Positions 37,112-56,846 of a DNA stretch of 64,000 nucleotides are shown here, piece after piece (the stretch's first letter is position 1; each line of letters opens with the position of its first letter). The notes beneath the pieces are model-generated. The model searched no databases. It was given only the letters and a program-made list of their open reading frames with translations, and was not told the DNA's origin. The DNA is from Kiritimatiellia bacterium (lineage in GTDB: Bacteria > Verrucomicrobiota > Kiritimatiellia > RFP12 > UBA3636). The DNA is taken from NCBI GenBank assembly GCA_017481725.1, contig JAFUOX010000043.1, positions 12,757 to 76,756 of the forward strand, in the 5' to 3' direction. The translations under genes and the position numbers were made by a program.

Positions 37112-37628
37112 TAATAATCGAATAGTTTTATCTCTCATATTGGCATTTACATTTTCTGCCTTTTTGCAGGATAGGCTTCCGCCTTTTTCTATGTATGCTA
37201 TTAAGGTGCCTTTTGTGTTGGCTCCATTTATCTATTATGTGTTTAGACATAAATTGGTGATTGGTATAATTGCAGCAATTTGTTGTTCAATTATGGGAGA
37301 TGGGCTTTCTATTAGTAGTGGAGTGGCATATCTTATTGTTAGCATTGGAACACTTTTCTTAAACCATTATGTTTTTAAAAAGCAGCTTCCTGATAATTCG
37401 ATTTCATGCGGGTTGATAGCTATTCCTTTAACTGTGTTGGTGTTGTTAATACAATATGCATCTATAGTTATATTTACTGAGAATGCATTTCATATTAGTT
37501 TTGTTTTGGTTAAGCTAATAATTACAGCTATTTTAACAGGCGTGGCAACAATAGCACTTTCTGAAGCATTTTACCGTTTTGAATTAATTGTTGGCAATAT
37601 AGAGGTGGCAGATGAAGAACTTGGTTGA
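37101..37628 (+). CDS. mreD: rod shape-determining protein MreD (small polytopic membrane protein)
   Basis: Position between mreC and mrdA, with about 5 TM segments. The ATG at 37101 overlaps the mreC end. The call is by synteny. Confidence 0.6.
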   Translation: MRNNNNRIVLSLILAFTFSAFLQDRLPPFSMYAIKVPFVLAPFIYYVFRHKLVIGIIAAICCSIMGDGLSISSGVAYLIVSIGTLFLNHYVFKKQLPDNSISCGLIAIPLTVLVLLIQYASIVIFTENAFHISFVLVKLIITAILTGVATIALSEAFYRFELIVGNIEVADEELG

Positions 37629-39768
37629 GAAGGAAGCGGCTGCCGCACGTATACGCCTAATAGTTATGGGCGTGCTAATGCTAATAGGTGTTTTTTATTT
37701 GCTATTTTGCCTATATGATATTCAAGTGAAGCAAACTCGCACCTTTAAGTCTGCTCAAGAATTTCATTCATTGCGTAGAGTGCGCCTTCCTGCAACGCGA
37801 GGAAAAATATTAGATAGAAATGGTATTGTACTTGCAGATAATAAGCCTTCCTATTGTGTTTCAATTTATCTTGAAGAAATGCGCCAAAAGGGAGCATGGA
37901 CAAATACCATAAATCATGTTGCTGAGCGTCTTGCCGAAATATCTGAAATTGTGGGTGTCCCTTGTGAGGTTGATAAGGAAGGTATTTGGGCTCATATTCG
38001 TCGCCGTAGGGCAATACCTATGGTAGCATTCCGCGGATTAGATGATGTGGCTGTGGCTCGTTTAAGTGAAAATGCAAAGCATATCCGTGGTGTTGATATT
38101 TCTGTTCAAGCAGAGCGTGTATATCCATATGGAGATTTGGCTTGCCATCTAATAGGATATGTGGGAAAAGGCCAACCAGATAATTTAGAGCAAGAACTAA
38201 ATCCAGATGGATTAGAGGATTTTGATGCAGAAAGTCTAGAATATGATTTTCTTTTACCGGATTTTGTTGGCAAGGATGGTGTTGAAAAGGCATGTAATTC
38301 AACATTAGCAGGCGTTGGTGGAGGCGAATTAATTCGCATTAATGCTGTGGGCTACCGTCATGAATCATATATGGGAAAACAACCTGTTCTAGGTAAGGAT
38401 GTTGCCCTAACAATTGATTTACGCTTACAGAAGCTTGCAGAGGAAGCTCTTGATGGAGTTCGTGGAAGTATTATTGTTATGGATTGTGAGACAGGAGAGC
38501 TTCTTGTTGCTGCAAGTGCTCCACGATATGATTTGTCTCGTTTTGTTCCAACACTTTCAGGTAGCTATTGGAAAGAATTATTAAATGATCCAATGCGCCC
38601 ATTGTATGGTCGTGCATGTAGTGGTATTTATGCACCTGGTAGTATTTTTAAACCTCTAGTTGCACTTTCTGCTTTGCGTGAGGGTGTAATAGATGCACAG
38701 ACACATTTTTATTGTAGTGGTAGAATCGAGATAGGAGGGAGTGTTTTCCGTTGTGCTCGCCGTTCAGGTCATGGTGACATCAATTTACGTCAGGCAATCT
38801 GTGGCTCTTGCAATCCATTTTTTATAATAGCTGGAACACGTTTGCATTATGAACCGTATATTTATCAAGATGCATTAGATGTTGGTTTTGGTCAAGCACC
38901 ACAGCTTGAAATTCCTTGCTCAAAGGGAGTGCTTCCTTCCTCCGCGTGGAAGCGTAGGCGTGAGAGAGATGGCTGGCGTGATGGAGATACTGCCAATGTT
39001 TCTATGGGTCAGGGATATCTTTCTGTTAGCCCATTGCAGGTTGCGGTGTATACAGCTGCACTTGCAAACGGTGGTAAGGTGTTGCGCCCTCGCTTGGTTC
39101 TTCCTGAAGGAGGTAAAATAGAAGAGGGAGAAGTGCTTAGACACATGAATTGGAGAAGCCAGGATTTGAATTTGGTCAAGCTTGGTATGTGGGATGTGGT
39201 CAACAGCGGATGGGGAACTGGTCGCAGAGCAAAGCTTGATGGAGTGTCATTAGCAGCAAAAACAGGTACTGCAGAATATATGGATAAAGGTGAAAAGAAA
39301 AAGAATGCTTGGATGATTGGCTTTGCTCCTTTTGAAAAACCAAAATATGCTATTGTTACAATGCAGGAGGATTCAGATGCAGGTGGACTTTCCGCAGCAC
39401 GCTTAATGCGTCAAATGACTCAGGCAATTTTCCTCCCAGATACTGTTCAAGCTAATATTGAAGAACTGGTAGAGGAGGAGCGGAGCTTTGTTGAAATTAA
39501 TGAGGTGGTTCCAGTTGATGCAGATATTGATTTGGAGATACATCCAGAACAGCTTATTATTGAACCAATTTTAATTTCAGAGGAGAATAACTCACAATCA
39601 ACAAATTCTCTTATGCAGATTTCAGCTCCATTGACATCAGAGCAAATAGATTCAATTTATATGGCACCAGAAGATATTCAAGATTCCTCTGAGACCCTGC
39701 CACAATTAGAAATAGATATGCATTCAAATATGCCTCCTAACCAAGAAACAAATGAGGAGGAAGATTAA
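37612..39768 (+). CDS. mrdA: penicillin-binding protein 2 (elongasome transpeptidase) with an acidic C-terminal extension
   Basis: SxxK (GSIFKP), SxN (GSCNPFF) and KTGT motifs. An N-terminal TM anchor is present, and the gene is adjacent to rodA. Confidence 0.88.
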   Translation: MKNLVEKEAAAARIRLIVMGVLMLIGVFYLLFCLYDIQVKQTRTFKSAQEFHSLRRVRLPATRGKILDRNGIVLADNKPSYCVSIYLEEMRQKGAWTNTINHVAERLAEISEIVGVPCEVDKEGIWAHIRRRRAIPMVAFRGLDDVAVARLSENAKHIRGVDISVQAERVYPYGDLACHLIGYVGKGQPDNLEQELNPDGLEDFDAESLEYDFLLPDFVGKDGVEKACNSTLAGVGGGELIRINAVGYRHESYMGKQPVLGKDVALTIDLRLQKLAEEALDGVRGSIIVMDCETGELLVAASAPRYDLSRFVPTLSGSYWKELLNDPMRPLYGRACSGIYAPGSIFKPLVALSALREGVIDAQTHFYCSGRIEIGGSVFRCARRSGHGDINLRQAICGSCNPFFIIAGTRLHYEPYIYQDALDVGFGQAPQLEIPCSKGVLPSSAWKRRRERDGWRDGDTANVSMGQGYLSVSPLQVAVYTAALANGGKVLRPRLVLPEGGKIEEGEVLRHMNWRSQDLNLVKLGMWDVVNSGWGTGRRAKLDGVSLAAKTGTAEYMDKGEKKKNAWMIGFAPFEKPKYAIVTMQEDSDAGGLSAARLMRQMTQAIFLPDTVQANIEELVEEERSFVEINEVVPVDADIDLEIHPEQLIIEPILISEENNSQSTNSLMQISAPLTSEQIDSIYMAPEDIQDSSETLPQLEIDMHSNMPPNQETNEEED

Positions 39769-39769
39769 T

Positions 39770-40975
39770 ATGGTTTTATCAAAATACAAAAAGAATACAT
39801 CAAGCCCAAATAAAGGCTTTAGCTTCCCAAGTTTTAATTGGGTGCTTATGCTATGCATGGGGATTCTTTTAACAATCGGTGTACTATTTGTTAAAAGTGC
39901 AACAAATATGCGCACCGATAGTGTTCATTATCTATATGTTCAGATGCTTATCAAATGGATACCACTCGGTATAATCGCACATTTTGGCATCGCATTCTTT
40001 GATTATCGTAAGCTTTCAGAAAAAGCGTGGCTGTTGTATGCGCTGGGTATCTTTTTGTTAATTCTTGTTTTGATACCAGGAATAGGCACAGCAAGGCTTG
40101 GTGCTCGCCGTTGGATTTTTGGTTTATTTCAACCTTCTGAATTTATGAAGCTGTGTATAATGCCAGCAGCAGCATTGTTATTGGGAAAATATACGGGAAT
40201 AAAGGATAGATATCGCTTCGGTGCAACGCTTGTTGTTTTTGCAATCCCAATGGGTTTAATTGCAATTCAACCGGATTTGGGTAGTGCTATTGTTTTTGTT
40301 CCAGTATGTCTAGCAATGCTTTTTGTTTCTGGCTGCTCGCCACGTCTTCTTCTTACAATATGCTTAGTAGGCGTATTTTGTATTAGTGTAGTTCTTGCTC
40401 TTATTTTGATTCCAGATAAAATGCCAGAGGAAAAGCGAGCAAGGATTGAAAGTGTTACAGATAATTTTATTTTTCCGCACTGGAAAAAACGTGTGAGAGT
40501 TTTTGTTAATCCAGATCATGATCCTTTGGGTGCTGGCTGGAATAAGAAGCAATCCGAAATTGCTGTTGGTAGTGGTGGCAAATATGGAAAAGGCTATCTT
40601 AATGGCACTCAAAATATTCTAGGCTTTTTACCAAGATCTGTATCTTCAACAGATTTTATTTTCTCTGTTATAGCTGAGGAAATGGGGTTTGTTGGAAGTT
40701 GTGTCTTGTTAATTCTTTTCGGTGGCATGCTTATAAGCATTGCCGTAACCGGTATCTTTTGTGGTGACGCCTCTGGCAGATTGATTTGTGCAGGTGTCTC
40801 CGCATTGTTTTTTGCACATATATTTGTCAATATAGCTATGACAATAGGTAAGATGCCTATTACAGGTATTCCACTGCCTTTTATTAGCTATGGAGGCACT
40901 TTTACAATATCAACAATGGCATTGCTCGGATTAGTACAGAGTGTGGCTATACATAGTAAGCCATCTCAATCTTGA
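39770..40975 (+). CDS. rodA: SEDS glycosyltransferase RodA
   Basis: FtsW/RodA/SpoVE family motifs: QPSEFMKL, SDFIFSVIAEEMGF, and PITGIPLPFISYGGT. Confidence 0.9.
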   Translation: MVLSKYKKNTSSPNKGFSFPSFNWVLMLCMGILLTIGVLFVKSATNMRTDSVHYLYVQMLIKWIPLGIIAHFGIAFFDYRKLSEKAWLLYALGIFLLILVLIPGIGTARLGARRWIFGLFQPSEFMKLCIMPAAALLLGKYTGIKDRYRFGATLVVFAIPMGLIAIQPDLGSAIVFVPVCLAMLFVSGCSPRLLLTICLVGVFCISVVLALILIPDKMPEEKRARIESVTDNFIFPHWKKRVRVFVNPDHDPLGAGWNKKQSEIAVGSGGKYGKGYLNGTQNILGFLPRSVSSTDFIFSVIAEEMGFVGSCVLLILFGGMLISIAVTGIFCGDASGRLICAGVSALFFAHIFVNIAMTIGKMPITGIPLPFISYGGTFTISTMALLGLVQSVAIHSKPSQS

Positions 40976-41003
40976 GATGCCAAATTAAAGAAAGAAGATT
41001 CAA

Positions 41004-42623
41004 ATGTTTGGAAGAAATTTTTTCAAATTTAAATGGATTACTAGAGCAAGCAATCACTTGAAACGTGAAATTATCGTTAATTGTGAAAAGCTTGAAACAC
41101 GTGTTGCTGTTCTTGAAAATGGCAAATTGGAAGAATATCAAGTTGAACATCCAATGGATGAGCGCTTTGTTGGTTCAATCTTTAAAGGACGTATTCAAAA
41201 TCTAGAAAATGATTTACAGGCAGCCTTTGTAAATATTGGTATGCGTAAAAATGCTTTTCTACACTATTGGGATATGAACCCAGATGATGATGCTATTCTT
41301 GATGAAGAGGAGATGAGCGAGATTCGCCATAAGCCAAGAAATAAACGCTTCACGAATGAAGAAATAGCAGCTCGCTATCCAATAGGTTCTGTTATCACTG
41401 TGCAGGTTTCAAAGGGTGCAATCGGTACAAAGGGGCCTCGCATCACTGCAAGTCTTTCAATTCCTGGTCGCTACCTAGTGCTCATGCCTAATAGCACCTT
41501 GCGCGGTGTTTCACGCAAAATCGGTGATGCCCATGAGCGTGAGCGCCTAAAGAAAATTTTGACACGTATGCAGAAGTATATTCCTGAGGATTGTGGTCTT
41601 ATTGTTCGCACAGCAGGTATGGGTGTTTCTAAGAGTGCATTTATTAGGGATTTACGCGTTGTCCTTTCAAGCTATTCTGAAATGAAGCAAGCCATTGCGG
41701 AGCAGCCTGCACCATGCTGTGTTTATGAGGAGCCAGATTTGATTATGCGCGTTATTCGCGATTGGATGACAGAGGATGTTGACCGCATTGTAATTGATAA
41801 TCCAGTTGTTTATGAGCGTGTACGTAAGGAGGCTGCGAAGATTTCTCGTAAGGCACGTAATCTTATCACTCTATATGAGGGACATTATCCAATATTTGAT
41901 CATTTTGGAGTTGAGAAGCAGGTGGAGGATGCTTTCCATCGTAAGATACCTCTTCCTTCTGGTGCTTATCTAATTATTGATGAAACAGAAGCATTGATTT
42001 CTGTTGATGTTAATACTGGGCGTCATAAGGGTAAAGGCTCTCAAGAGGAAGCAATTCTTGAGGTAAACCTTGAGGCAGTGGAAGAGGTCGCTCGCCAATT
42101 GCGCTTACGTAATATTGGTGGCTTGGTAGTGCTTGATCTTATTGATATGAAGTCACGTAAGCACCAGCAACAGGTATATCGTGCATTCAAAAATGCCCTC
42201 CGCCGCGATAAGGCCCGCACAAATGTTATGCAAATTTCAGAGCTCGGACTTCTTGAAATGACTCGCCAACGTTTTGATGCAAGTATTCAATCTCAGATGA
42301 ATTTAGATTGCCCATATTGCCATGGTCGTGGTATAATAAAGTCACCTTTACAGCTAAGTATCGATGTTCAACGTCGCCTTCGCTCTTTGGTAAGCTTGTT
42401 TAAAGCAGAGCGCCGCGAGGTAGATATCCAAGTTTGCATTCATCCTTCTGTGTTAGATCGTATTCGTACAGAAGATGGTGATTTAATCCGTGAGCTTCAG
42501 GATAACTATAAGGGAAGACTCTCCTTTAAGGCAGACCCAATGCGCCAGGCTGAGAGTTTTTCAATTATTGATGTAAAATCATCTCAAATACTATTTAGTA
42601 CAGGTGATCAGAAGCAGATTTAA
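41004..42623 (+). CDS. rng: ribonuclease G / RNase E-G family
   Basis: An N-terminal S1 domain (GSIFKGRIQNLENDLQAAFVNIG) and the catalytic region LIIDETEALISVDVNTG...NLEA..E.ARQLRLRNIGGLVVLDLIDM. Confidence 0.85.
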   Translation: MFGRNFFKFKWITRASNHLKREIIVNCEKLETRVAVLENGKLEEYQVEHPMDERFVGSIFKGRIQNLENDLQAAFVNIGMRKNAFLHYWDMNPDDDAILDEEEMSEIRHKPRNKRFTNEEIAARYPIGSVITVQVSKGAIGTKGPRITASLSIPGRYLVLMPNSTLRGVSRKIGDAHERERLKKILTRMQKYIPEDCGLIVRTAGMGVSKSAFIRDLRVVLSSYSEMKQAIAEQPAPCCVYEEPDLIMRVIRDWMTEDVDRIVIDNPVVYERVRKEAAKISRKARNLITLYEGHYPIFDHFGVEKQVEDAFHRKIPLPSGAYLIIDETEALISVDVNTGRHKGKGSQEEAILEVNLEAVEEVARQLRLRNIGGLVVLDLIDMKSRKHQQQVYRAFKNALRRDKARTNVMQISELGLLEMTRQRFDASIQSQMNLDCPYCHGRGIIKSPLQLSIDVQRRLRSLVSLFKAERREVDIQVCIHPSVLDRIRTEDGDLIRELQDNYKGRLSFKADPMRQAESFSIIDVKSSQILFSTGDQKQI

Positions 42624-43735: not shown

Positions 43736-45205
43736 ATGAATATAAAATTAATTCTGGGTACATTGTGTATTACCGCTTTAACTGTTTTTGGAAACGTATC
43801 AAAAGCAGTTAATGTAGAGGAGGCACAGACAAAAACCCTTCGTATGGTAACAGAGGCAACATTTCCACCATATGAATATCGTGAGAATGGAAGAATTATC
43901 GGCATCGATCCAGATGTCGTTCGTGAGATAGCACGCCGCAATGGCTATGCACTTGTGATAGAGGATATGCCATTTAATTCAATTATTGCAGCGGTTCAGT
44001 CTGGTAAGGCAGATATTGCAGCATCAGGTATTACAATTACAGAGGATAGGAAAAAGATTGTTAATTTTTCTGATCCATATATTACTGCTGGTCAGTCAAT
44101 AATTATTTCAAAGAATTCAACTATTAAGTCTGCTGCAGATTTAAAGGGTAAGCGCATTGGTGTTCAAAGTGGAACTACAGGTGATATATATGTAGCAGAA
44201 AATATTGGTGAGCCAGAGCGTTTTGATAATGCAGCACTAGTATGTGCAGCAATCTCATCTGGTAGGCTTGATGCCGGTGTTGTAGACACTGCTCCTGCGA
44301 AGGAATTTGTAAAACGCAGCGAAGATATAAAAATGCTTCCAGAGCCTTTAACCTCAGAGGAATATGCTTTTGCTATAAATAAAAATCGCACAGATTTGCT
44401 AGAAATGATTAATACAACTCTAGTAGAAATGAAGGATGAAGGCTTAATTAAGCATATAGTTGCAAAGCATGAGAAAAATGTCACTAAGGATACCGAGGAA
44501 ATCAAAGAAACAGGCTTTTGGGCTGATTTTAAGGATGATTTTCATACCAACTTTGTTGATGATGATCGCTATTTGTATTTGTTAAATGGATTTGTTAAGA
44601 CAATAGAAATTTCTGCTGGTGCCGTTGTCCTCGGTATCATGATTGGTTTCTTGGTCGCAGTTATTCGAAGTGCTGCAGATCAGACAGGTAAATTAAAAAT
44701 CGCAAATTTGATTTGTAAATTTTATCTAACTGTTATCCGTGGTACTCCAGTTGTCGTTCAGCTATTGATTATCTATTTTGTTATCTTTGGTTCTGTTGAC
44801 ATAAACAAAGTGGTAATTGCAATTATTGCATTCGGTCTAAATTCTGGTGCATATGTTGCTGAAATTATTCGTTCTGGAATTATGTCTATTGATAAAGGAC
44901 AGCTTGAGGCTGGGCGTAGCCTTGGCTTGTCATATCCAAAGACAATGATTTTAATTATTCTTCCTCAAGCATTTAAGAATGTTCTTCCTGCTTTAGGTAA
45001 TGAATTTATTGTGCTTTTGAAGGAAACAAGTATTTCTGGTTATATTGCCCTTGAAGATTTGACAAAGGGTGGTGATATTATCCGAGGACAAACATATAAT
45101 GCATTTGTTCCATTGATGGCGGTTGCTATAATCTACCTAACGGTGGTTATATTCCTATCAAAATTACTCACATTGCTTGAAAAACGTTTGAAGAGAAATG
45201 AATAA
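43736..45205 (+). CDS. fused substrate-binding domain + permease of an amino-acid ABC transporter (GlnP-like)
   Basis: The N-terminal about 250 aa are paralogous to 42667..43419. The C-terminal half has the polar-amino-acid permease EAA-type motif ([22 protein letters not shown]). Confidence 0.85.
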
Positions 45206-46204: not shown

Positions 46205-48055
46205 ATGCTTTATGCTATAGTCTCAGATATACATGGTAATTATAATGCATGGGCCGCAGTGCTTGAGGATGCTCGAGCTATTGGGGTTGGCCGTATTGTA
46301 TGTTTGGGAGATGTAGTAGGGTATGGTCCAGAGCCAGGCCGATGCGTCCAATCAATTCGCGATGTTGCTCACGCATGTGTACTTGGCAATCATGATGCTG
46401 TAATTACCAAAAAATTGGATTCAATTGCATTTAATGACCATGCTCGTAAATTGATTGAGTGGACTGAACTACAATTAAATCCAGAAGAAATTGATTATTT
46501 AAATCAACTTGATTATGAGTTCTCAGAGGATTGTTTCCGCTGTGTTCATGGAGATTGTGATGCTCCACAAGAATTCAATTATATTGTAGATTGTGATGAT
46601 GCAAAATTAACTTGGGAGCGTACTTCTGAACAAATTATTTTCTGCGGACATAGTCATATCCCAGCTGTTTTTGTTGCTACAAATAATTATGAGGAAATGT
46701 GTGCTCTGCCTCCTCAAGATTTTTCTCTTGAGGATAGTAACCGTTATATTGTAAATGTTGGCTCTGTAGGTTCTCCTCGTGATGATGATTTGAGAGCAAG
46801 CTATGTCTTGTTTGATTCGGAAACAAAATCTGTATTCTTCCGTCGCGTTTGTTATAATTTTGATGAATTTCGTGCACGGGTAAAATTTGTTGGCTTGAAT
46901 GAAAACGACGTTCCTCTCCTTTGTTATGTTCTAGAGGAGGAGCCAGCAGATCATATTACCCTTGAGGAAGAAATTTCAAAAGCAGAAATTGTTGTTACAA
47001 ACGAAGCATCTGACTTGGCAAAGACTGTTCATCTTCATGAAATTGATTTGTCCGATATTTTAAAAAATGCTAATGCACCAACATTAGGAAATATAAAGGG
47101 TAATGCTAGTTCGGTTAAAAATTCAAAGAAGCTTAAAATTTTTATTAAAAAAGAAAATAACCAGACTGCTAAGGAGACAAAGAATTTCAAAGAAGCACCA
47201 AAAGCGGAGGCTCCAACAGTTTTGCATCATAAGCCAGGTGCTCGCACTAATAAGGCTGTTTTAACTGAAAAAAATAACTCTCATTCTAATAACTCAAAAA
47301 ACAAATCAAACCCTACTTTAGAATCTAAATACCTAAGACATGTTAATGCAGCTGAGAGAGCTCCAGCTAAGCTATATATTTTTATTGCTGTTTTAGTTCT
47401 TATAATAATTGTTTTTGCTAGTGTTTTCTATACAAGTGCATTTCCAAATCAAGGTCATGTTGTCAGGTATCCAAATGAAAATTTGACTATTGTTAAAACA
47501 CATGATAAATCAGAATTAGAAAATCTATTGCCTGAAATTTGGATGAGCTCTGAAAATCATAATACCATTGCTCCATATAGGCTTACCACGTCAGATAAAG
47601 TTATTGTTTCTTTTGACAATATTGATGGAATTTATGGTGCTGAATTAATTTTACAAAATGTTGAAAATCAATTTCATCAAATTTGTTTTGAATCTCCGTA
47701 TATAGAAATTGACCCAAAAGGAAAATATTTAATCTTAGCAAAGGTGTTTTTTGAACATGATAATATCGATGGAGACCTGACTATGCAGTTGGTCCATTCA
47801 GATGATTCAAATTTATATTCTGCATTACCAAGTGAAAAAATTACCAAATTTTACAAAAAAGAAATTTCAAAAAAACTCTACAAAACAAAAGATATACCTA
47901 AATGTTTTAAATATCGCCCTTCAAGTGCCGGTTGGTGGCTAGCACAGCGTACTGTAGAAGGCAAAGAGTTGAATAAATATATGCGAGTTATTGTTCGTGG
48001 CAATTTTAAAGGAAGAATATCAATTGGTGGAATATCAATTCAAAGAATTGATTAG
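46205..48055 (+). CDS. calcineurin-like metallophosphoesterase fused via a TM helix to an unknown C-terminal domain
   Basis: SDIHGN, LGDVVGYGP, GNHD and GHSH motifs in aa 1-240. A K/N-rich linker and a TM helix (LYIFIAVLVLIIIVFASVFY) follow, then about 210 aa with no recognisable family. Confidence 0.7.
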   Translation: MLYAIVSDIHGNYNAWAAVLEDARAIGVGRIVCLGDVVGYGPEPGRCVQSIRDVAHACVLGNHDAVITKKLDSIAFNDHARKLIEWTELQLNPEEIDYLNQLDYEFSEDCFRCVHGDCDAPQEFNYIVDCDDAKLTWERTSEQIIFCGHSHIPAVFVATNNYEEMCALPPQDFSLEDSNRYIVNVGSVGSPRDDDLRASYVLFDSETKSVFFRRVCYNFDEFRARVKFVGLNENDVPLLCYVLEEEPADHITLEEEISKAEIVVTNEASDLAKTVHLHEIDLSDILKNANAPTLGNIKGNASSVKNSKKLKIFIKKENNQTAKETKNFKEAPKAEAPTVLHHKPGARTNKAVLTEKNNSHSNNSKNKSNPTLESKYLRHVNAAERAPAKLYIFIAVLVLIIIVFASVFYTSAFPNQGHVVRYPNENLTIVKTHDKSELENLLPEIWMSSENHNTIAPYRLTTSDKVIVSFDNIDGIYGAELILQNVENQFHQICFESPYIEIDPKGKYLILAKVFFEHDNIDGDLTMQLVHSDDSNLYSALPSEKITKFYKKEISKKLYKTKDIPKCFKYRPSSAGWWLAQRTVEGKELNKYMRVIVRGNFKGRISIGGISIQRID

Positions 48056-49465: not shown

Positions 49466-49573
49466 TTTTTTATTGTGATATTTTAATATTAGAATGGTAT
49501 TATGTAACAAGTGCTATAATTGTTAAGGTGGTTTGGCAAAAATGGTTTCATTGTCTTTGATATTTGTTTAAAT

Positions 49574-50287
49574 ATGAATTTTTTCTTAAAAAGCTTAGAA
49601 GGAAATCTCGTAAATGAGAGAAAGCTGATTGCTCCGGCAAATCAAAAGGATTTTGCCGCAGATTTGCTTTCTACATATTGCTTTGCTGACGATTATTTCC
49701 CTGTTGGGAAAATTAGAAGCATATACTTTGATTCATATGATCTTTCCTCCTACGATGAAAAAAGGAATGGCGACAATTTAAAGGTTAAGCTTCGTTTGAG
49801 ATGGTATGGAGAAGCAACAAATTCTGATGGAACAACACGTGCCTTTCTCGAGGCAAAGCATAGATTAGGCAGTGCACGCCGTAAGCTTAGACAGGAGTAT
49901 CTTCTTCCAGTTGATTGGTTGGAAAAGACACCTTTGGAGGACGCATCATTCTCAGATTTTATCCAAAAGGAAGTACACAACCTTGATTTATTAGAAGCTT
50001 TCTATTGGACCCCAACAGTTATTATCGCTTATGACAGAATGCGTTTCTTCTGCCCTCATTCAAAAAGTAGGGTTGCACTTGACTACAATATCTGCTGTCC
50101 AAAAATCAATAGGGTTCGCTTTGCCTATGCACCTGAACGAATAGATTTGGATACAGTGGTTTGTGAATTTAAAAATCCTGGTGGCACTCCACCATCGTGG
50201 CTTGAAACACTAACAATCGCAGGCTTTAGAGTCAAAAGTTTTTCAAAATATGGATCCATAATGGATTCTATCTTACAAAGGATATAA
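49574..50287 (+). CDS. VTC-domain (triphosphate-tunnel, polyphosphate-polymerase-like) protein
   Basis: NERK near the N-terminus, IRSIYFDS, KVKLRLRWYG and FLEAKHRLGSARRKLR are the basic-residue beta-strand pattern of VTC/CYTH tunnels. The ATG at 49574 is preferred over the TTG at 49520. Confidence 0.7.
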   Translation: MNFFLKSLEGNLVNERKLIAPANQKDFAADLLSTYCFADDYFPVGKIRSIYFDSYDLSSYDEKRNGDNLKVKLRLRWYGEATNSDGTTRAFLEAKHRLGSARRKLRQEYLLPVDWLEKTPLEDASFSDFIQKEVHNLDLLEAFYWTPTVIIAYDRMRFFCPHSKSRVALDYNICCPKINRVRFAYAPERIDLDTVVCEFKNPGGTPPSWLETLTIAGFRVKSFSKYGSIMDSILQRI

Positions 50288-50289
50288 CC

Positions 50290-50985
50290 ATGAATAAAGA
50301 ACTAATAGAGGCATTAGATTCATTTCAAGTAGTTAGAGAACAATTAGATGTAGGTCTATTTGTTTCGGCACTTTTTGCGTCATTGTTGGCGGCAATTTTT
50401 GCAAGCCTTTTATATCGCTTTTTCTATGAGCGCCGCGGAACAGGTAGTCAAGTTCATAGAGCTTTCCCGCTTCTTGCAATTTCAATTACTACGTTATTCA
50501 TTGGAGTACAGATTTCAATACCACTTTCTTTAGGCTTACTTGGTGCGCTGTCAATCATCCGTTTCCGTACGCCAATTAAAGAGCCAGAGGAGGTTGGATT
50601 TATTATGCTTGTTATTGCTTCCTCAATTGCGGCTGCAACCTTTAATTTTGCATTCCTATTCTTGCTTAATGTGTTTGCAATAATTACACTTATTTGTATG
50701 CGTGGTACAACCTCAATAAAATGGCTCAAGCGAGATGGTATGATGGTTATAATTTTTGAAACACCTGAAGCAACTGAAAAATATAAGCTTGTTGAAGAGG
50801 TTATTAAAGAAAACTTTGGTCGTTATCAGCTTGAATCAACAGCTATTAGAAATGGTCAAACCTCTTATCAATATGTATTCTCCAATCTGAAATGCTCTGT
50901 TGATGAGCTTCAGAATAAGCTTATGAAGAAAGCTAAATTCATAGCAATCAATGTTTATTTGGATAAACCTGGTGGAATTAGATAA
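50290..50985 (+). CDS. DUF4956-family membrane protein
   Basis: About 4 TM segments with the hallmark GALSIIRFRTPIKEPEEVGFI, then a soluble C-terminal domain. It starts 2 nt after the VTC stop. Confidence 0.65.
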   Translation: MNKELIEALDSFQVVREQLDVGLFVSALFASLLAAIFASLLYRFFYERRGTGSQVHRAFPLLAISITTLFIGVQISIPLSLGLLGALSIIRFRTPIKEPEEVGFIMLVIASSIAAATFNFAFLFLLNVFAIITLICMRGTTSIKWLKRDGMMVIIFETPEATEKYKLVEEVIKENFGRYQLESTAIRNGQTSYQYVFSNLKCSVDELQNKLMKKAKFIAINVYLDKPGGIR

Positions 50986-53795
50986 TGCGCACTATGCGAA
51001 AAAAAAGACTCATTCAAGCTGCAATAATTTTATTGTTGGGTGTAGCAGTTTATTTCTGTGTTAGACCATGTTTGGAAAGTCTATATCGGTCCAATAATGT
51101 TTGCCGTAGAACTATAAGTTCGACCGCAGTTAATAATTATGGATTGAAATTCTATAGCTCACTTGACTATCCCATATTATTTGATGAAACAACAGGAGGT
51201 CGGTTTGAGTCGCACTTTCTCAAATATAAAAAAGGGAAATTCGGCGGCGCAAGAAAATTTGAAAAGGGCTATAAAGGAAAAATAATATTAAATCACTCAT
51301 GGAATAATATTATGTCTGAAAACCAGACTCTCTCTTTTTTCTTTAAGCCAGATAAGAATGAAATTCCTCAAACAATTTTATCTATCCCATCATTGTCGGG
51401 AGCAGATAATGTTCTTGCGATTGAAAATGATATTATTTCTTTAAAATTTTATACAGCAGCTGGGTGTAAGGTTGCATCAGGCTCTCTTCTAAAGAAAAAT
51501 AAATGGAATCATGTTGCATTAAGAGTGCATGATAAAGTAGTGGGTTTCTACTTAAATGGTATATTGGTAGGAGAAATACCATTGGATGATGAAACTATAT
51601 CTGTTCGATCATGGATTGTTTTTGGTGGAAAAGAAGAGTTGCCATATTTAGGCTCGCTAGATGAAATTGCTATATTTTCTGAAGTGGCATCAGAAGATTT
51701 CATAAAAAAACTTGGAAAAAATTTATCAATTAGCCCTTTATCAAAAAATACTTATCACAAAACATATGTTACACGTATAGCATCAAACTTATACTCTTTA
51801 CTTAGTTCAGGAGCTAGAGTAGTTAGTATATTATATCCCTCTAAGAGTTTTTGTGCGCTAAACTCTCACGATCTACCGATAGTTTCATTTAATTTTTCAA
51901 AATCTGATGATAAGCACTTTAAAATTGCTCATGAGGACTCTATTCTTACAGGTAAAAGAATTTCGCCAGCCGCCAATATGCGTAAGATAACTATGGCAAT
52001 CAATCACGATGTGGTTCAATGCTATGCATATCTTGATGACATATATGGTGATTTATATATCAAACCCAAACGCCCTGGCTACGTAGTTATTGTGCCGGAG
52101 AATATTGACTCAGAAATAATAGTGCCAAAACGTATGTTTACGCTTACACCTCCTGAATTATATGCGGTTAAACACCCAGATGCAGATTATTTTTTACCTT
52201 CAAATTACTCGAGTTTAGTTAGATTCTATACAAATAATGAGTTAAAGGGCATATATTATTTAGAGGAATGGCAAAGTAATGGTAGAGGCTGGATGGTGTC
52301 GAGTGATGATTGCAACATTCCGAGAATGCTTTCTGCCTCGCATTCTGGAGAGCCTACTTTTGGGATAAATCCAGAGCTAGCAGAACATACTATTCTTTCA
52401 GATATTTATTTCCCATGGAGTAAAATTGAAGTTGATGTCCGTTCAAAGCAGCATGAAAAAAATCGTAAGGAAAAGAATTATGCTGGTGGAGGGCTACATG
52501 AGTTTGATTTTCTTGCAGACAATATTTCTCCATTTATGCTTAGAAGTTCATTGATAATTCCAGAGGGAATAAAAGTGGTTGCTTCCTCTAATCCTGAGCT
52601 AATAGATTTGCAAGGCAATGTATTTGCAGATAAAGTTAATGAGCCATCCTATGTAAATATAATTGTTGAAAAAGAGTCTACACATGAAGAAAAGGAGCTC
52701 AAGTTTAGAGTTGTTCCTGAGAGCCCAGATTTGCCAACATTGTCGCTTTGGATTGATAGACCTCTTCAAAAAACAACAAAGCAGGATTTCCTATGTTCAA
52801 TACAAATGCCTAATCAAACAAATTCAATTTTGAATTTTGGTTTGGCTGGCAAGCGTTCTGGAATAATGCATAGGGGAAATACTTCATATGTAAGAGGTAG
52901 GAAGCGCTCACTTGGCTTGGAGTTTGAGTTTTCTCATAATATTATAGGAGACGATGAGTCAAGACATTTGGTTCTTGTTTCAGGCTACGCAGACAAGACG
53001 CGCCTAAGGAATGCGTTTACATTTGAGATGTTCAAGAAAATGAACCCAGATGTAAATTATGCACCTAACCTAACTTTTGTAGAGGCTTGTGTAAATGGAG
53101 AATATGCAGGAATATATGAAGCAATAAATCGAATTGACGATTTGAATCTTCCATCAAATATTGTTTCTGCATTGAGAGTTAGAAGATACTCAAATCTCTT
53201 CGGTACAGAAAACTTCAATATGTTTGAAGAAATTGTTCCACGCAACAATTTTGGAGTCGGTGTTTCAAATTATTTAAACACGGTAAGCTTTTTGAAGACT
53301 TCGACACTTGAAGACTTTAGGTCTCATTTACATGAAAAGATAGTAATGGAAAATATTGTAGATTACTATTTAATGTTTAATTTTACTCAAAACATTGACA
53401 TAGTAAATGTAAATCAAGTATTGTGCTATGATGATAAAGGTAGATTGTCTATAGTCCCATGGGATTGTGATAAGAGCTTTAATAATCGAAAACGCTTCAC
53501 TATGTTAGGAAATCGTTTGTACAACAAATGCTTGAAAGATAGTCCAGAATTTAAAGCAATGGTAAAGGAACGTTGGCAGCAGCACAAGACTACAATCTTT
53601 TCAGATGAAGCAATCGATGGGTGGATAGCAGATAAGACAAGCCAAATATCAAAATATATGGACTATGAGTTAAAATATATTTCTACGCCATTAGATGGAG
53701 AAGAAGATCTTTCTTATGAGGAGAGTGTGGAGGATTTCCGTAAAACAATATATTTTATGCGTGAAAAGCTTGATGAATATGTCAAAAACTTGTAA
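50985..53795 (+). CDS. signal-anchored LamG-like + CotH-family atypical kinase protein
   Basis: The ATG overlaps the upstream TAA (ATAATG). The LamG-like region is WNHVALRVHDKVVGFYLNGILVG...GSLDEIAIFS. CotH motifs are HRGNTSY..RKRSLGLEF, FVEACVNGEYAGIYEAINRID and IVPWDCDKSF. Confidence 0.8.
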   Translation: MRTMRKKRLIQAAIILLLGVAVYFCVRPCLESLYRSNNVCRRTISSTAVNNYGLKFYSSLDYPILFDETTGGRFESHFLKYKKGKFGGARKFEKGYKGKIILNHSWNNIMSENQTLSFFFKPDKNEIPQTILSIPSLSGADNVLAIENDIISLKFYTAAGCKVASGSLLKKNKWNHVALRVHDKVVGFYLNGILVGEIPLDDETISVRSWIVFGGKEELPYLGSLDEIAIFSEVASEDFIKKLGKNLSISPLSKNTYHKTYVTRIASNLYSLLSSGARVVSILYPSKSFCALNSHDLPIVSFNFSKSDDKHFKIAHEDSILTGKRISPAANMRKITMAINHDVVQCYAYLDDIYGDLYIKPKRPGYVVIVPENIDSEIIVPKRMFTLTPPELYAVKHPDADYFLPSNYSSLVRFYTNNELKGIYYLEEWQSNGRGWMVSSDDCNIPRMLSASHSGEPTFGINPELAEHTILSDIYFPWSKIEVDVRSKQHEKNRKEKNYAGGGLHEFDFLADNISPFMLRSSLIIPEGIKVVASSNPELIDLQGNVFADKVNEPSYVNIIVEKESTHEEKELKFRVVPESPDLPTLSLWIDRPLQKTTKQDFLCSIQMPNQTNSILNFGLAGKRSGIMHRGNTSYVRGRKRSLGLEFEFSHNIIGDDESRHLVLVSGYADKTRLRNAFTFEMFKKMNPDVNYAPNLTFVEACVNGEYAGIYEAINRIDDLNLPSNIVSALRVRRYSNLFGTENFNMFEEIVPRNNFGVGVSNYLNTVSFLKTSTLEDFRSHLHEKIVMENIVDYYLMFNFTQNIDIVNVNQVLCYDDKGRLSIVPWDCDKSFNNRKRFTMLGNRLYNKCLKDSPEFKAMVKERWQQHKTTIFSDEAIDGWIADKTSQISKYMDYELKYISTPLDGEEDLSYEESVEDFRKTIYFMREKLDEYVKNL

Positions 53796-53914: not shown

Positions 53915-55414
53915 ATGGAAAATAAAACTTTTAGCATTCGTAGCCTAACAGCAGAGATAGGTAAAAACCCTAAAGATTTTACAAAGAGCGATATTGTTCG
54001 CTTTATTTGCGAAAACGATATTCACCACATCAACTTCCAGTATCCAGCAGGTGATGGTCGTTTGAAGACACTTAATTTTGTAATCAATAACCAGGATTAC
54101 CTAGAAGAGATACTATCCTGCGGTGAGCGCGTAGATGGTTCAAGCCTTTTCCCATTCATTGAAGCAAACAATAGCGACCTATATGTAGTTCCTCGCTTTA
54201 GAACAGCTTATATGGATCCATTCTGTGAGCTCCCAACAGTTAATTTCCTATGCTCATTCTTTAATAAGGATGGCGACCCTCTAGAGAGCTCTCCAGAATA
54301 TACTCTTCATAAGGCATGTGAAGCATTCCGTAAGTCAACCGGCCGTGAGTTTCAGGCAATGGGTGAGCTTGAGTACTATGTTATTGCTGAGGATGAGGCT
54401 GTTTATCAGGCAGTTGACCAGAAGGGCTATCATGAGTCTTCTCCTTATGCAAAATTTGGTGAGTTCCGTCAGCTTTGCATGAACTACATTGCTCAGGCTG
54501 GTGGTATGATTAAGTATGGTCACTCTGAGGTGGGTAATTTCACTCTAGATGGCAAAATCTATGAGCAGAATGAAATTGAGTTCCTTCCTACAAATGCAGA
54601 GGAAGCTGCAGAGCAGCTAACTATTGCAAAGTGGATTATCCGCAATCTTGCATATCAGAATGGTTTGAATGTAACATTTGCTCCAAAAATTACAGTTGGT
54701 AAGGCTGGCTCTGGCTTGCATGTTCACTTCCGTGTAATGAAGGACGGAAAGAACCAGATGCTAAAGGATGGTGTGCTTTCTGATGATGCAAAGCGTGCAA
54801 TCGCAGGCTTGATGAAGCTAGCTCCATCTATCACAGCATTCGGCAATTTGAATCCAACCTCATACTTCCGCCTAGTTCCTCATCAGGAGGCTCCAACAAA
54901 CGTTTGCTGGGGTGATCGCAATCGCTCAGTGCTTGTTCGCGTTCCTCTTGGTTGGACAAGCAAGAAAGATCTCTGCAGTCAGGCAAATCCTGGTGAGCCT
55001 TCTGCTAAGTATGATACAACTCAGAAGCAGACAGTTGAGATGCGCTCACCAGATGGTTCCGCAAATGTATATCTACTAATTGCTGGCTTGGCAGTTGCTT
55101 GCCGTCACGGCTTTGAAAGCGCAGATGCACTTGAGGTTGCAGAGAAAACTTATGTTAATGTTAATATTCATAAGGATGAAAATAAAGCAATCCTTGATCG
55201 CTTGAGCGTTCTACCAGATAGCTGCGCAGCATCTGCAGATTGCCTAGCAGAGCAGCGTGCAATCTATGAGGCAGAGGGCGTATTTGCTCCTGCAATGATT
55301 GATGGAATTATCGCTGGCTTGAAGGCATTCAATGATAGAACCTTGCGTGCTGACATCGGTAATGACCAAGCAAAGATTCTTGCCCTAGTGGAAGAATATT
55401 TCCACTGCGGTTAA
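53915..55414 (+). CDS. glnA: glutamine synthetase (about 500-aa GS-I-like subgroup)
   Basis: GELEYYV, KYGHSEVG, NEIEF, KAGSGLHVHF and NRSVLVRVP motifs of the GS catalytic domain. Confidence 0.85.
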   Translation: MENKTFSIRSLTAEIGKNPKDFTKSDIVRFICENDIHHINFQYPAGDGRLKTLNFVINNQDYLEEILSCGERVDGSSLFPFIEANNSDLYVVPRFRTAYMDPFCELPTVNFLCSFFNKDGDPLESSPEYTLHKACEAFRKSTGREFQAMGELEYYVIAEDEAVYQAVDQKGYHESSPYAKFGEFRQLCMNYIAQAGGMIKYGHSEVGNFTLDGKIYEQNEIEFLPTNAEEAAEQLTIAKWIIRNLAYQNGLNVTFAPKITVGKAGSGLHVHFRVMKDGKNQMLKDGVLSDDAKRAIAGLMKLAPSITAFGNLNPTSYFRLVPHQEAPTNVCWGDRNRSVLVRVPLGWTSKKDLCSQANPGEPSAKYDTTQKQTVEMRSPDGSANVYLLIAGLAVACRHGFESADALEVAEKTYVNVNIHKDENKAILDRLSVLPDSCAASADCLAEQRAIYEAEGVFAPAMIDGIIAGLKAFNDRTLRADIGNDQAKILALVEEYFHCG

Positions 55415-55432
55415 TCTAATTAAAAAAAAATT

Positions 55433-55491
55433 AAAAAAGGCTGTTGCTAACCAACTAGGGATAAGCAACAGCCTTTTTTTTGTTATGGCTT
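55433..55491. terminator. bidirectional intrinsic terminator, copy 1 of a 58/59-bp direct repeat
   Basis: A6-GGCTGTTGCT-15 nt-AGCAACAGCC-T8, then GTTATGGCTT. It lies between the glnA stop and the stop of the - strand ATPase. Confidence 0.85.
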
Positions 55492-55505
55492 GATTAGATT
55501 TTTTG

Positions 55506-56846
55506 TTATGTATGCTTTTGTTCCAAAGCTAATCCAATTAGCCGATTTGCTTGACCAACCATGAATAGAGGTATGTTTAGAACATCATCATTAATCTTTA
55601 GATTGTCAAGTGATACGCGTATACGGAGTTTAATCATGTCAGAAAATAGTTCCTTAAATTTTTTTAGGCTCTTACTTGTCGTATTGGTGTCTGATTTAAC
55701 CTCTACAGGGAAAATATCATTCTCGCGTTGAATTAGGAAATCAACTTCAAATGGGGGATTGTTCTGAGACCAATACCGAGGAATGACTTCAAATTGAGTT
55801 GCCAAGGACTGTAGCACAAAGTTTTCTGTCAATGCACCCTTGAATTCTGTGAATAGTCTATTGCCTTCTCCAAATGCAGTAGGTGCAAGTCGCGATAATC
55901 TGCGTAATAACCCCACGTCAACTAGGTATATCTTAAAAGCGGACAAGTCGTCATAAGCAGATAGTGGTAAACGTGGAGCACTGCAACGATAAATTTTGTG
56001 AACCAACTTTGCATCTACCAACCATTGTAGTGCGTTCTCATATTCTCTTGCTCTTGCTCCTTCTTTGACAACATTATAAATGAACTTTTTATTTTCCCTT
56101 GCTAATTGAGACGGAACGGATTTCCATATCATTGATAATTTTGGAAATTCGCTAATGCTCGGATGCTTTGCAAAATCACGTTCATATGCATCAATAATAT
56201 TAGATTGTACCTCCTGCATCGCGGCAACATCATGTGCTTCAGTCCACATAAGAACTGGTTCGGGCATCCCGCCCGTAATATAGTACATTTTAAGCTTTTC
56301 GCATAAAGGGTTAAAAAATGCATCTGGAATTGGTTCAAGATGTTCCCATTTGTTTAAAAAATCCAAAAGATTGTCATCTCCATTAGCCAAAAGGAATTCT
56401 TCAAAGCTCATTGGATCAATTTGCATAAAATTAACTTTGCCAACAGGGAAAGAAGATGGTTTTGAAAGAGCAATACCGAGAAGAGAACCTGCACAAGCAA
56501 TATGATACTCTGGTGCATTTTCACAAAAATATTTCATTGAGTTTATTACATTAGGACAATCTTGTATCTCATCAAAAATAATAAGAGTTTTCTCGGGTAA
56601 AATTTTTGTCCCACTAACTAGCATCAAATTTTGTAGAATTCGGTTAACGTCTTTGGTTGTATTGAAAAATTGTTTATATTCTTCATTTTCATCAAAGTTA
56701 AAATATGCGATGTTTTCATAGTGCCGCTTGCCAAATTCCTTTAGAATCCAGGTTTTACCTACTTGACGCACTCCTTTTAATATTAGTGGCTTGCGGTATT
56801 GAGAATTTTTCCAGTCTACCAGTTTTTTAAAAATAAAGCGTTCCAT
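55506..56846 (-). CDS. AAA-type ATPase with a DUF4143-like C-terminal domain (second, divergent paralogue)
   Basis: Walker A GVRQVGKTW and Walker B IIFDEIQ. C-terminal EVDFLI...PVEVKS resembles a PD-(D/E)xK-like core. Confidence 0.8.
   Translation of the reverse strand: MERFIFKKLVDWKNSQYRKPLILKGVRQVGKTWILKEFGKRHYENIAYFNFDENEEYKQFFNTTKDVNRILQNLMLVSGTKILPEKTLIIFDEIQDCPNVINSMKYFCENAPEYHIACAGSLLGIALSKPSSFPVGKVNFMQIDPMSFEEFLLANGDDNLLDFLNKWEHLEPIPDAFFNPLCEKLKMYYITGGMPEPVLMWTEAHDVAAMQEVQSNIIDAYERDFAKHPSISEFPKLSMIWKSVPSQLARENKKFIYNVVKEGARAREYENALQWLVDAKLVHKIYRCSAPRLPLSAYDDLSAFKIYLVDVGLLRRLSRLAPTAFGEGNRLFTEFKGALTENFVLQSLATQFEVIPRYWSQNNPPFEVDFLIQRENDIFPVEVKSDTNTTSKSLKKFKELFSDMIKLRIRVSLDNLKINDDVLNIPLFMVGQANRLIGLALEQKHT

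Follow-up and report, generated by a model that had tools for sequence, protein, structure and literature searches.

In streptococci, clostridia and bifidobacteria, genes for CotH, a polyphosphate polymerase, DUF4956 and DUF4832 directly adjoin pelDEADAFG and have been described as accessory to it (Whitfield et al. 2020, PMC7112168). In Streptococcus intermedius, SIR_1594-SIR_1592 are predicted to encode a CotH-FN3 protein that is secreted, a VTC-like polymerase of the cytoplasm and an ACT-domain membrane protein, and the authors report no instance of this synteny outside pel loci (mBio 2025, PMC12345266). VTC-domain and CotH genes are also present in the NELoc-2 locus of Clostridium perfringens. 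Here, a stretch of 64,000 nucleotides (nt) from a Kiritimatiellia bacterium (contig JAFUOX010000043.1, positions 12,757 to 76,756 of the forward strand; the whole stretch is called the window below) was analysed, in which genes for a VTC-domain protein, a DUF4956 protein and a LamG-CotH protein are packed together at positions 49574-53795. The trio itself is already described in Gram-positive pel operons; what is new here is its occurrence as a self-standing module, independent of Pel and widespread in diderm phyla. A preliminary description of the window had stated that no function is established for the trio. This agrees with the literature searched, in which no paper giving a mechanism was found, although the trio as such had been described in the pel operons.

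The three genes of the window are as follows.

49574..50287, forward strand: VTC-domain gene, open reading frame (ORF) from ATG, 237 amino acids (aa)
50290..50985, forward strand: DUF4956 gene, ORF of 231 aa
50985..53795, forward strand: LamG + CotH gene, ORF of 936 aa, signal-anchored

The VTC stop codon TAA (50285-50287) is followed by CC and then by the DUF4956 start codon ATG at 50290, leaving a gap of 2 nt. The DUF4956 stop codon TAA and the CotH start codon ATG share one A, giving an overlap of 1 nt (...GATAATG...). The packing that the preliminary description had given, with its 2-nt gap and its stop/start overlap, was confirmed from the ORFs (TAA-CC-ATG; TAATG), and the sequence motifs quoted there were all found in the translations. 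The four families named there (VTC, DUF4956, CotH and Laminin_G_3) were all recovered above the curated Pfam cut-offs by profile hidden Markov models (HMMs).

The genomic distribution of the trio was analysed with a DUF4956 profile, using one genome per species, and VTC and CotH genes were called by HMMs made within the analysis. The resulting 80 loci span Kiritimatiellia, Lentisphaerae, Chlamydiae, Schekmanbacteria, Rokubacteria, Erginobacter, Spirochaetes, Vicinamibacteria and Desulfobacterota. The VTC gene lies directly upstream of the DUF4956 gene in 70 of the 76 loci with room for it, and the stop and start codons often overlap; the other 6 loci failed the adjacency criterion, at least some of them as artefacts of ORF extension or calling. 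Among the complete loci, defined as those with at least 3.5 kb on both sides (n = 45), 44 have a CotH gene within 6 kb; they come from Kiritimatiellia, Lentisphaerae, Chlamydiae, Spirochaetes, Vicinamibacteria, Desulfobacterota and candidate phyla. It is located directly downstream in 40, upstream in 3 (Spirochaetes) and on the opposite strand in 1. The trio therefore shows near-obligate gene linkage across phyla, whereas a lack of co-conservation would have counted against the preliminary description, and its synteny was found outside pel in at least 8 other phylum-level groups.

In three Kiritimatiellia lineages the order VTC-DUF4956-LamG/CotH is constant and the flanks vary. The cassette is therefore kept as a unit. 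When 101 same-strand operonic neighbours were compared with Pfam, no fourth gene was recurrent (any family was found at most 4 times), and therefore the trio is self-contained. The division of the products is also constant across the loci: the VTC protein is without a hydrophobic segment, the DUF4956 protein is polytopic, and the CotH protein has an export or anchor segment in 65 of 68 cases. The domains fused to CotH vary by lineage (LamG, LTD, FGE-sulfatase, CHB_HEX_C/Fn3_assoc), and the divergent CotH cases were confirmed by Pfam. The linkage was also followed into five distant DUF4956 members. A VTC gene adjoins in four of them, the contig of the fifth having no room upstream, and a recognisable CotH gene adjoins in two, one of these with three paralogues. 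At L095 (1918-5362), three short CotH paralogues in tandem (372-394 aa) and a beta-helix protein come after the VTC-DUF4956 pair; a beta-helix protein also comes after the pair at L091.

The VTC protein matches Pfam PF09359 with 75.7 bits against a gathering cut-off of 23 (E 5e-21), and a profile of its homologues finds the Vtc4 catalytic domain in the PDB (E 7e-10). The AlphaFold2 (AF2) model, with a predicted local distance difference test score (pLDDT) of 89.8 and a predicted template modelling score (pTM) of 0.87, shows an eight-stranded triphosphate-tunnel barrel. In the Foldseek search of this model, the top 13 matches are all VTC subunits, and the best is Vtc4 3G3R (E 8e-13, template modelling (TM) score 0.65). 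The next families are ygiF (E 1e-6) and, more weakly, class IV adenylate cyclases and ThTPase. According to the profile alignment to Vtc4, R74/R76 correspond to R264/R266, K95 to K281, E198 to E426, and S224/K225 to S457/K458. K17 lies outside the alignment and, judging from its position in strand 1, probably corresponds to Vtc4 K200. The residues E15, K17, K72, R74, R76, E93, K95, Y153, R155, E198, K200, S224 and K225 are invariant in the VTC homologues (28-41, other phyla included). As for the tunnel Lys/Arg/Glu residues that the preliminary description had called for, the alignable ones of Vtc4 are present, and the AF2 model has the Vtc4 fold. No hydrophobic segment was found in the VTC protein, which is predicted to be soluble and cytoplasmic. 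The trio proteins have no Pfam match to SPX or DUF202, and the NCBIfam models gave no match for any of the three. These sequence and model comparisons indicate that the VTC protein is most likely a Vtc4-type triphosphate-tunnel enzyme making inorganic polyphosphate (polyP) from the gamma-phosphate of ATP.

The DUF4956 protein matches Pfam PF16316 with 53.7 bits against a gathering cut-off of 30.6 (E 3e-14). The preliminary description had assigned four transmembrane segments to it. The AF2 model (pLDDT 80) instead shows a short N-terminal helix, five membrane helices (residues 21-45, 55-73, 78-93, 99-116 and 120-146) and a C-terminal beta-alpha-beta-beta-alpha-beta domain. The two parts are located as follows.

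50350..50727, forward strand: DUF4956 membrane part, residues 21-146, from the AF2 model
50737..50967, forward strand: DUF4956 ACT-like C-domain, residues 150-226, from the AF2 model and structural matches

In the structure search of the model, the C-domain alone finds matches, which are ACT, MgtC C-domain and PII-like folds. No solved relative of DUF4956 was found in the PDB by single sequence or by profile. In 91 diverse representatives, near-invariance is confined to the stretch Q74-x-S76-x-PLSLGLLGALS-xx-R91-F-R93-T-P-x-K97-x-P-E-E, in which Q74, S76, P78-LSLGLLGALS, R91-F-R93-T-P95, K97 and P99-E-E101 are invariant. According to the charge distribution and the positive-inside rule, the loops 46-57 (ERRGTGSQVHR) and 91-101 (RFRTPIKEPEE) and the C-domain are probably cytoplasmic. 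The invariant basic loop would then lie on the side of the VTC protein, as expected of an entry site for a polyanion. MgtC was considered as a possible homologue of DUF4956, but no homology was detected: PF02308 gives no match at E<=10, and the hhalign comparison with E. coli YhiD has a probability of 0.15%. DUF4956 shares with MgtC just the fold of the ACT-like C-domain, as do many other ACT-like proteins. The cassette is common, the DUF4956 family by itself comprising 3,282 clusters at 50% identity, and no relative of the DUF4956 protein was found in the plasmid collection. Three long or odd DUF4956 matches were inspected as possible fusions and look like chimeric calls (PMT_2+DUF4956+BPD_transp, DUF4956+BPD_transp and DUF4956+PorA).

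The third protein has the following segments.

51006..51062, forward strand: N-terminal signal anchor, residues 8-26 after RKKR, the sole hydrophobic segment (Kyte-Doolittle 2.23)
51294..51704, forward strand: Laminin_G_3/concanavalin-like jelly-roll, residues 104-240, Pfam PF13385
52866..53732, forward strand: CotH atypical kinase domain, residues 628-916, Pfam PF08757, with K640, D805, N810, D827 and D829

The CotH match has 112 bits against a cut-off of 23.8 (E 4e-32), and the Laminin_G_3 match has an E of 5e-12. The soluble VTC protein and the 936-aa signal-anchored LamG-CotH protein of the preliminary description were both borne out by Pfam and by hydrophobicity. The LamG profile matches modules of the extracellular arabinanase 5HO0, pentraxins, lectin domains of sialidases and neurotoxin Hc. 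For the CotH domain, the profile finds B. cereus CotH 5JD9 (E 2e-20). By alignment, D805 corresponds to the catalytic D228 of B. subtilis CotH, and D827 corresponds to the metal-binding D251; mutation of D228 or D251 abolishes the kinase activity of the B. subtilis protein. The window protein has the complete set of K640, D805, N810, D827 and D829, and is of the canonical type. Its homologues are 50-58% identical over the full length, with identical architecture. A single N-terminal hydrophobic segment for export or anchoring is found in 65 of 68 CotH partners. The N-terminal signal or anchor of the window protein and of these partners predicts an extracytoplasmic kinase domain, in accordance with the location that had been proposed for it. 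The metal-binding Asp (D827 column) is kept in all 67 partners with a residue there.

Between the LamG and CotH domains, a middle region of about 350 aa contains an Ig-like piece. Residues ~346-433 of this region (52020-52283) align collinearly with the CotH N-lobe, but the match is non-significant (hhalign E 0.017, probability 2.7%). The large unannotated proteins that adjoin DUF4956 in L093 and L096 are matched by this stretch alone. It may be a degenerate CotH-like duplication. The lectin-like or Ig-like modules joined to CotH suggest that it acts on an envelope or matrix polymer.

The inside/membrane/outside split is constant and nothing else is conserved nearby. The simplest reading is therefore that the first two proteins deliver something to the third across the membrane. 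Because the fold and the residues of the VTC protein are Vtc4-specific, the delivered item is most likely polyphosphate. The preliminary description had proposed that VTC and DUF4956 make and export polyP, or another phosphoryl donor or substrate, for the CotH enzyme outside; none of the computational outcomes that it named as refuting occurred, and the proposal is partly supported but unproven. From the topology and the linkage, we infer the following model, which we hold tentatively; as a whole it has somewhat less than an even chance of being correct. The three genes make up a single operon-like cassette, with products distributed across the inner membrane. In the cytoplasm, the VTC protein would polymerise the gamma-phosphate of ATP into polyP. 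In the membrane, the DUF4956 protein would be the obligatory partner of the VTC protein and would oligomerise. Its R-F-R-T-P-x-K loop and its Gly/Ser-rich helix 78-93 would take up the chain as it grows and carry it through the membrane, and the ACT-like C-domain may gate the chain transfer. DUF4956 would thereby take the role of the transmembrane helices of Vtc1/3/4, via an unrelated fold. Outside, where ATP is absent, the anchored LamG-CotH protein would use the exported polyP as the phosphoryl donor or as the transferred group, and its target would be a cell-envelope glycan or protein bound by the lectin-like LamG. In cultured Kiritimatiellae, ordinary polyP is covered by ppk and ppx, and a second, membrane-coupled polymerase therefore plausibly has a dedicated role.

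Several observations weigh against this export model. To our knowledge, the characterised CotH kinases use ATP, and we know of no polyP-dependent CotH. DUF4956 as a pore is a proposal made by analogy: its membrane part has no detectable similarity to Vtc1/DUF202 or to any solved structure (profile against the PDB, Foldseek), and the lowest AF2 confidence falls on the most conserved segment. No natural VTC-DUF4956 fusion was found in the best 150 of the 3,282 DUF4956 representatives. A recognisable CotH neighbour is missing at the VTC-DUF4956 pairs L087, L091, L093 and L096. Of the 68 CotH partners, 46 have Asp, 18 Asn and 4 Glu at the catalytic-loop position (D805 column). The Asn-type partners (L005, L024, L029, L037, L045, L055 and others) have the motif QN-x-NG-x-PF and a nearby insertion ending in H-D/E, and keep the metal-binding PWD-x-D; this subfamily may have a relocated catalytic base or an altered chemistry. 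In S. intermedius, the DUF4956 and CotH deletions lower aggregation and shift Pel oppositely, and the VTC deletion has no reported effect (PMC12345266). A simple linear pathway from VTC via DUF4956 to CotH fits these results poorly, since loss of the VTC gene does not reproduce the phenotype of CotH loss.

The S. intermedius phenotypes suit regulation better than linear supply, and they lead to another explanation, in which the trio is a regulatory or phosphate-homeostasis module. PolyP would stay in the cytoplasm, DUF4956 would be an MgtC-like regulator whose ACT domain senses a metabolite and tunes the envelope or the exopolysaccharide, and CotH would be an exported kinase or adhesin with ATP otherwise obtained (e.g. 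leaked or secreted). The link among the three genes would be regulatory, not channelling. The architecture of DUF4956, with five membrane helices and an ACT-like domain, is MgtC-like, and its C-domain matches the MgtC C-domain among the ACT-like folds. The S. intermedius authors also called their DUF4956 homologue MgtC-like and suggested that polyP may remain cytoplasmic (PMC12345266). However, the sequence comparisons with PF02308 and YhiD described above found no homology to MgtC. The near-constant export of the partner kinase and the frequent translational coupling of VTC and DUF4956 would be left unexplained, and no recurrent target gene for such regulation is located nearby. We regard the regulatory explanation as unlikely. 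The identity of the enzyme itself can also be questioned: the VTC protein may be another tunnel enzyme (a tripolyphosphatase, a nucleotide cyclase or a triphosphate-transferase), whose small product is passed or signalled through DUF4956. The triphosphate tunnel metalloenzyme (TTM)/CYTH superfamily has triphosphatases and cyclases, ygiF, the class IV adenylate cyclases and ThTPase being the weaker structural matches noted above, and no characterised or assayed bacterial VTC-domain enzyme was found in the literature searched. Such an enzyme is nevertheless quite improbable here. The E values of the 13 VTC subunits are about six orders of magnitude better than those of the other TTMs, the Pfam family is VTC and not CYTH, and the residues aligned to the polymerisation residues of Vtc4 are invariant.

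As for the third protein, CotH may be mainly a surface structural or adhesion protein, or may itself be a substrate or anchor of polyP, rather than a kinase using polyP. A role at the surface and in adhesion has been proposed for the CotH invasins of Mucorales. The variable lectin-like and Ig-like accessory domains suggest matrix binding, and the replacement of the catalytic-loop Asp by Asn in 18 of 68 partners is in the same direction. But the window protein keeps the full catalytic set, and the metal-binding Asp without exception in the 67 partners argues for retained catalysis. A non-kinase role seems very improbable. The export model, tentative as it is, can be extended: VTC and DUF4956 would be a widespread bacterial polyP synthase-translocase, the exported CotH proteins would be polyP-dependent phosphotransferases, and the trio would be a general route for phosphorylation of the envelope or matrix outside the cytoplasm. 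We consider this extension doubtful.

The distribution changes the published picture: rather than an accessory block specific to Pel, the trio is a module that stands by itself in many diderm phyla. It bears on the question of how phosphotransfer is powered outside the bacterial cytoplasmic membrane, and the linkage pattern gives a concrete testable model from three genes. If the export model is true, it links polyphosphate biology, atypical kinases and the modification of the cell envelope or biofilm matrix, and it bears on trio-carrying pathogens (the Streptococcus milleri group, and C. perfringens with its NELoc-2 locus).

The trio is preceded by the following region.

49466..49573, forward strand: mnmE-VTC intergenic region, candidate promoter region of the trio, a 108-nt AT-rich gap past the mnmE stop codon

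A sigma-70-like match with an extended -10 is located at 49475-49503, on the 5' side of the VTC gene, and is weak evidence, as the count of promoter-like matches in this region does not exceed the shuffled expectation. The same applies to the terminator scan. Because neither scan beats the shuffled expectation, the operon boundaries rest on gene spacing alone. A TTG at 49520, upstream of the ATG at 49574, is an alternative VTC start, but a comparison with the N-termini of the homologues favours the ATG. The GC content of the trio is 35.6%, against 39.6% for the window, and belongs to the lowest 1.3% of 4.2-kb windows. The AT-richness noted in the preliminary description is thus real but modest, the comparison here being with the whole window.

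The upstream neighbours in the window are PBP2, RodA, RNase G, an amino-acid ATP-binding cassette (ABC) transporter, a membrane phosphoesterase and mnmE, and the downstream neighbour is glutamine synthetase (glnA). These are housekeeping genes; no pel genes and no DUF4832 gene are found near the trio of the window. The closest genomes are uncultured Kiritimatiellia metagenome-assembled genomes, with 91% identity of the DUF4956 protein. In both the window (37612-42620) and L005 (1-3040), a distant Kiritimatiellia genome with a VTC protein 42% identical to that of the window, the trio is preceded at a distance of a few genes by the PBP2-RodA-RNase G block, which may be residual ancestral synteny. 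One ORF at 43736..45205 (forward strand) fuses an SBP_bac_3 periplasmic solute-binding domain with a BPD_transp_1 ABC permease domain. The gene at 46205..48055 (forward strand), two genes upstream of the trio, encodes a 616-aa protein with a calcineurin-like phosphoesterase domain (Metallophos_2, residues 1-207) and one transmembrane segment (390-408); its C-terminal ~200 aa have no Pfam match. The relative L011 has a 612-aa ORF at the equivalent position, matched by length and position, and elsewhere this gene is not conserved with the trio. On a larger scale, almost every ORF of 250 aa or more lies on the forward strand up to 55.4 kb and on the reverse strand beyond (switch at ~55400-55600), and the cumulative GC skew has its maximum in the window at ~55-56 kb. 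The switch and the skew peak may reflect converging replication forks (terminus-like) or a simple strand switch.

The trio was compared with four known systems. The yeast VTC complex (Vtc4/Vtc3/Vtc1; PDB 3G3Q, 7YTJ and 8I6V) couples polyP synthesis to translocation via its own transmembrane domain. The window trio is like it in the fold of the tunnel domain, in the aligned catalytic residues, and in having a cytoplasmic polymerase tied to a membrane component. In the trio, however, SPX is absent and the tunnel domain makes up a soluble protein by itself. The membrane partner DUF4956 has five helices and an ACT-like domain, whereas the yeast one is of the three-helix DUF202 type, with no detectable similarity between the two. 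The destination would be the periplasm or the cell surface, whereas it is the vacuole in yeast. The trio would accordingly resemble the yeast complex by analogy of function, not as a member of it. In the case of CotH, the Bacillus protein (PDB 5JD9) shares with the window protein the atypical kinase domain and its conserved catalytic and metal-binding Asp residues. Bacillus CotH is a spore-coat protein without N-terminal extensions, whereas the window protein adds a signal anchor, LamG, the ~350-aa middle region, an Ig-like module and the linkage to VTC and DUF4956. The MgtC family is similar to DUF4956 in its polytopic N-terminal membrane domain and its cytoplasmic ACT-like C-domain, with a structural match of the C-domains, but DUF4956 has no sequence or profile similarity to it. 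As far as we know, MgtC genes are not linked to VTC or CotH genes.

The Gram-positive pel accessory genes have the same three families adjacent to each other, CotH being secreted, the VTC-like protein cytoplasmic and DUF4956 polytopic with an ACT-like C-domain. Unlike them, the trio of the window is not contiguous with pel and is without DUF4832, and its host is a diderm Kiritimatiellia bacterium. Its CotH is membrane-anchored and fused to LamG, whereas the S. intermedius CotH has FN3. The cassette of the window is a Pel-independent, LamG-fused, diderm variant of the Gram-positive trio.

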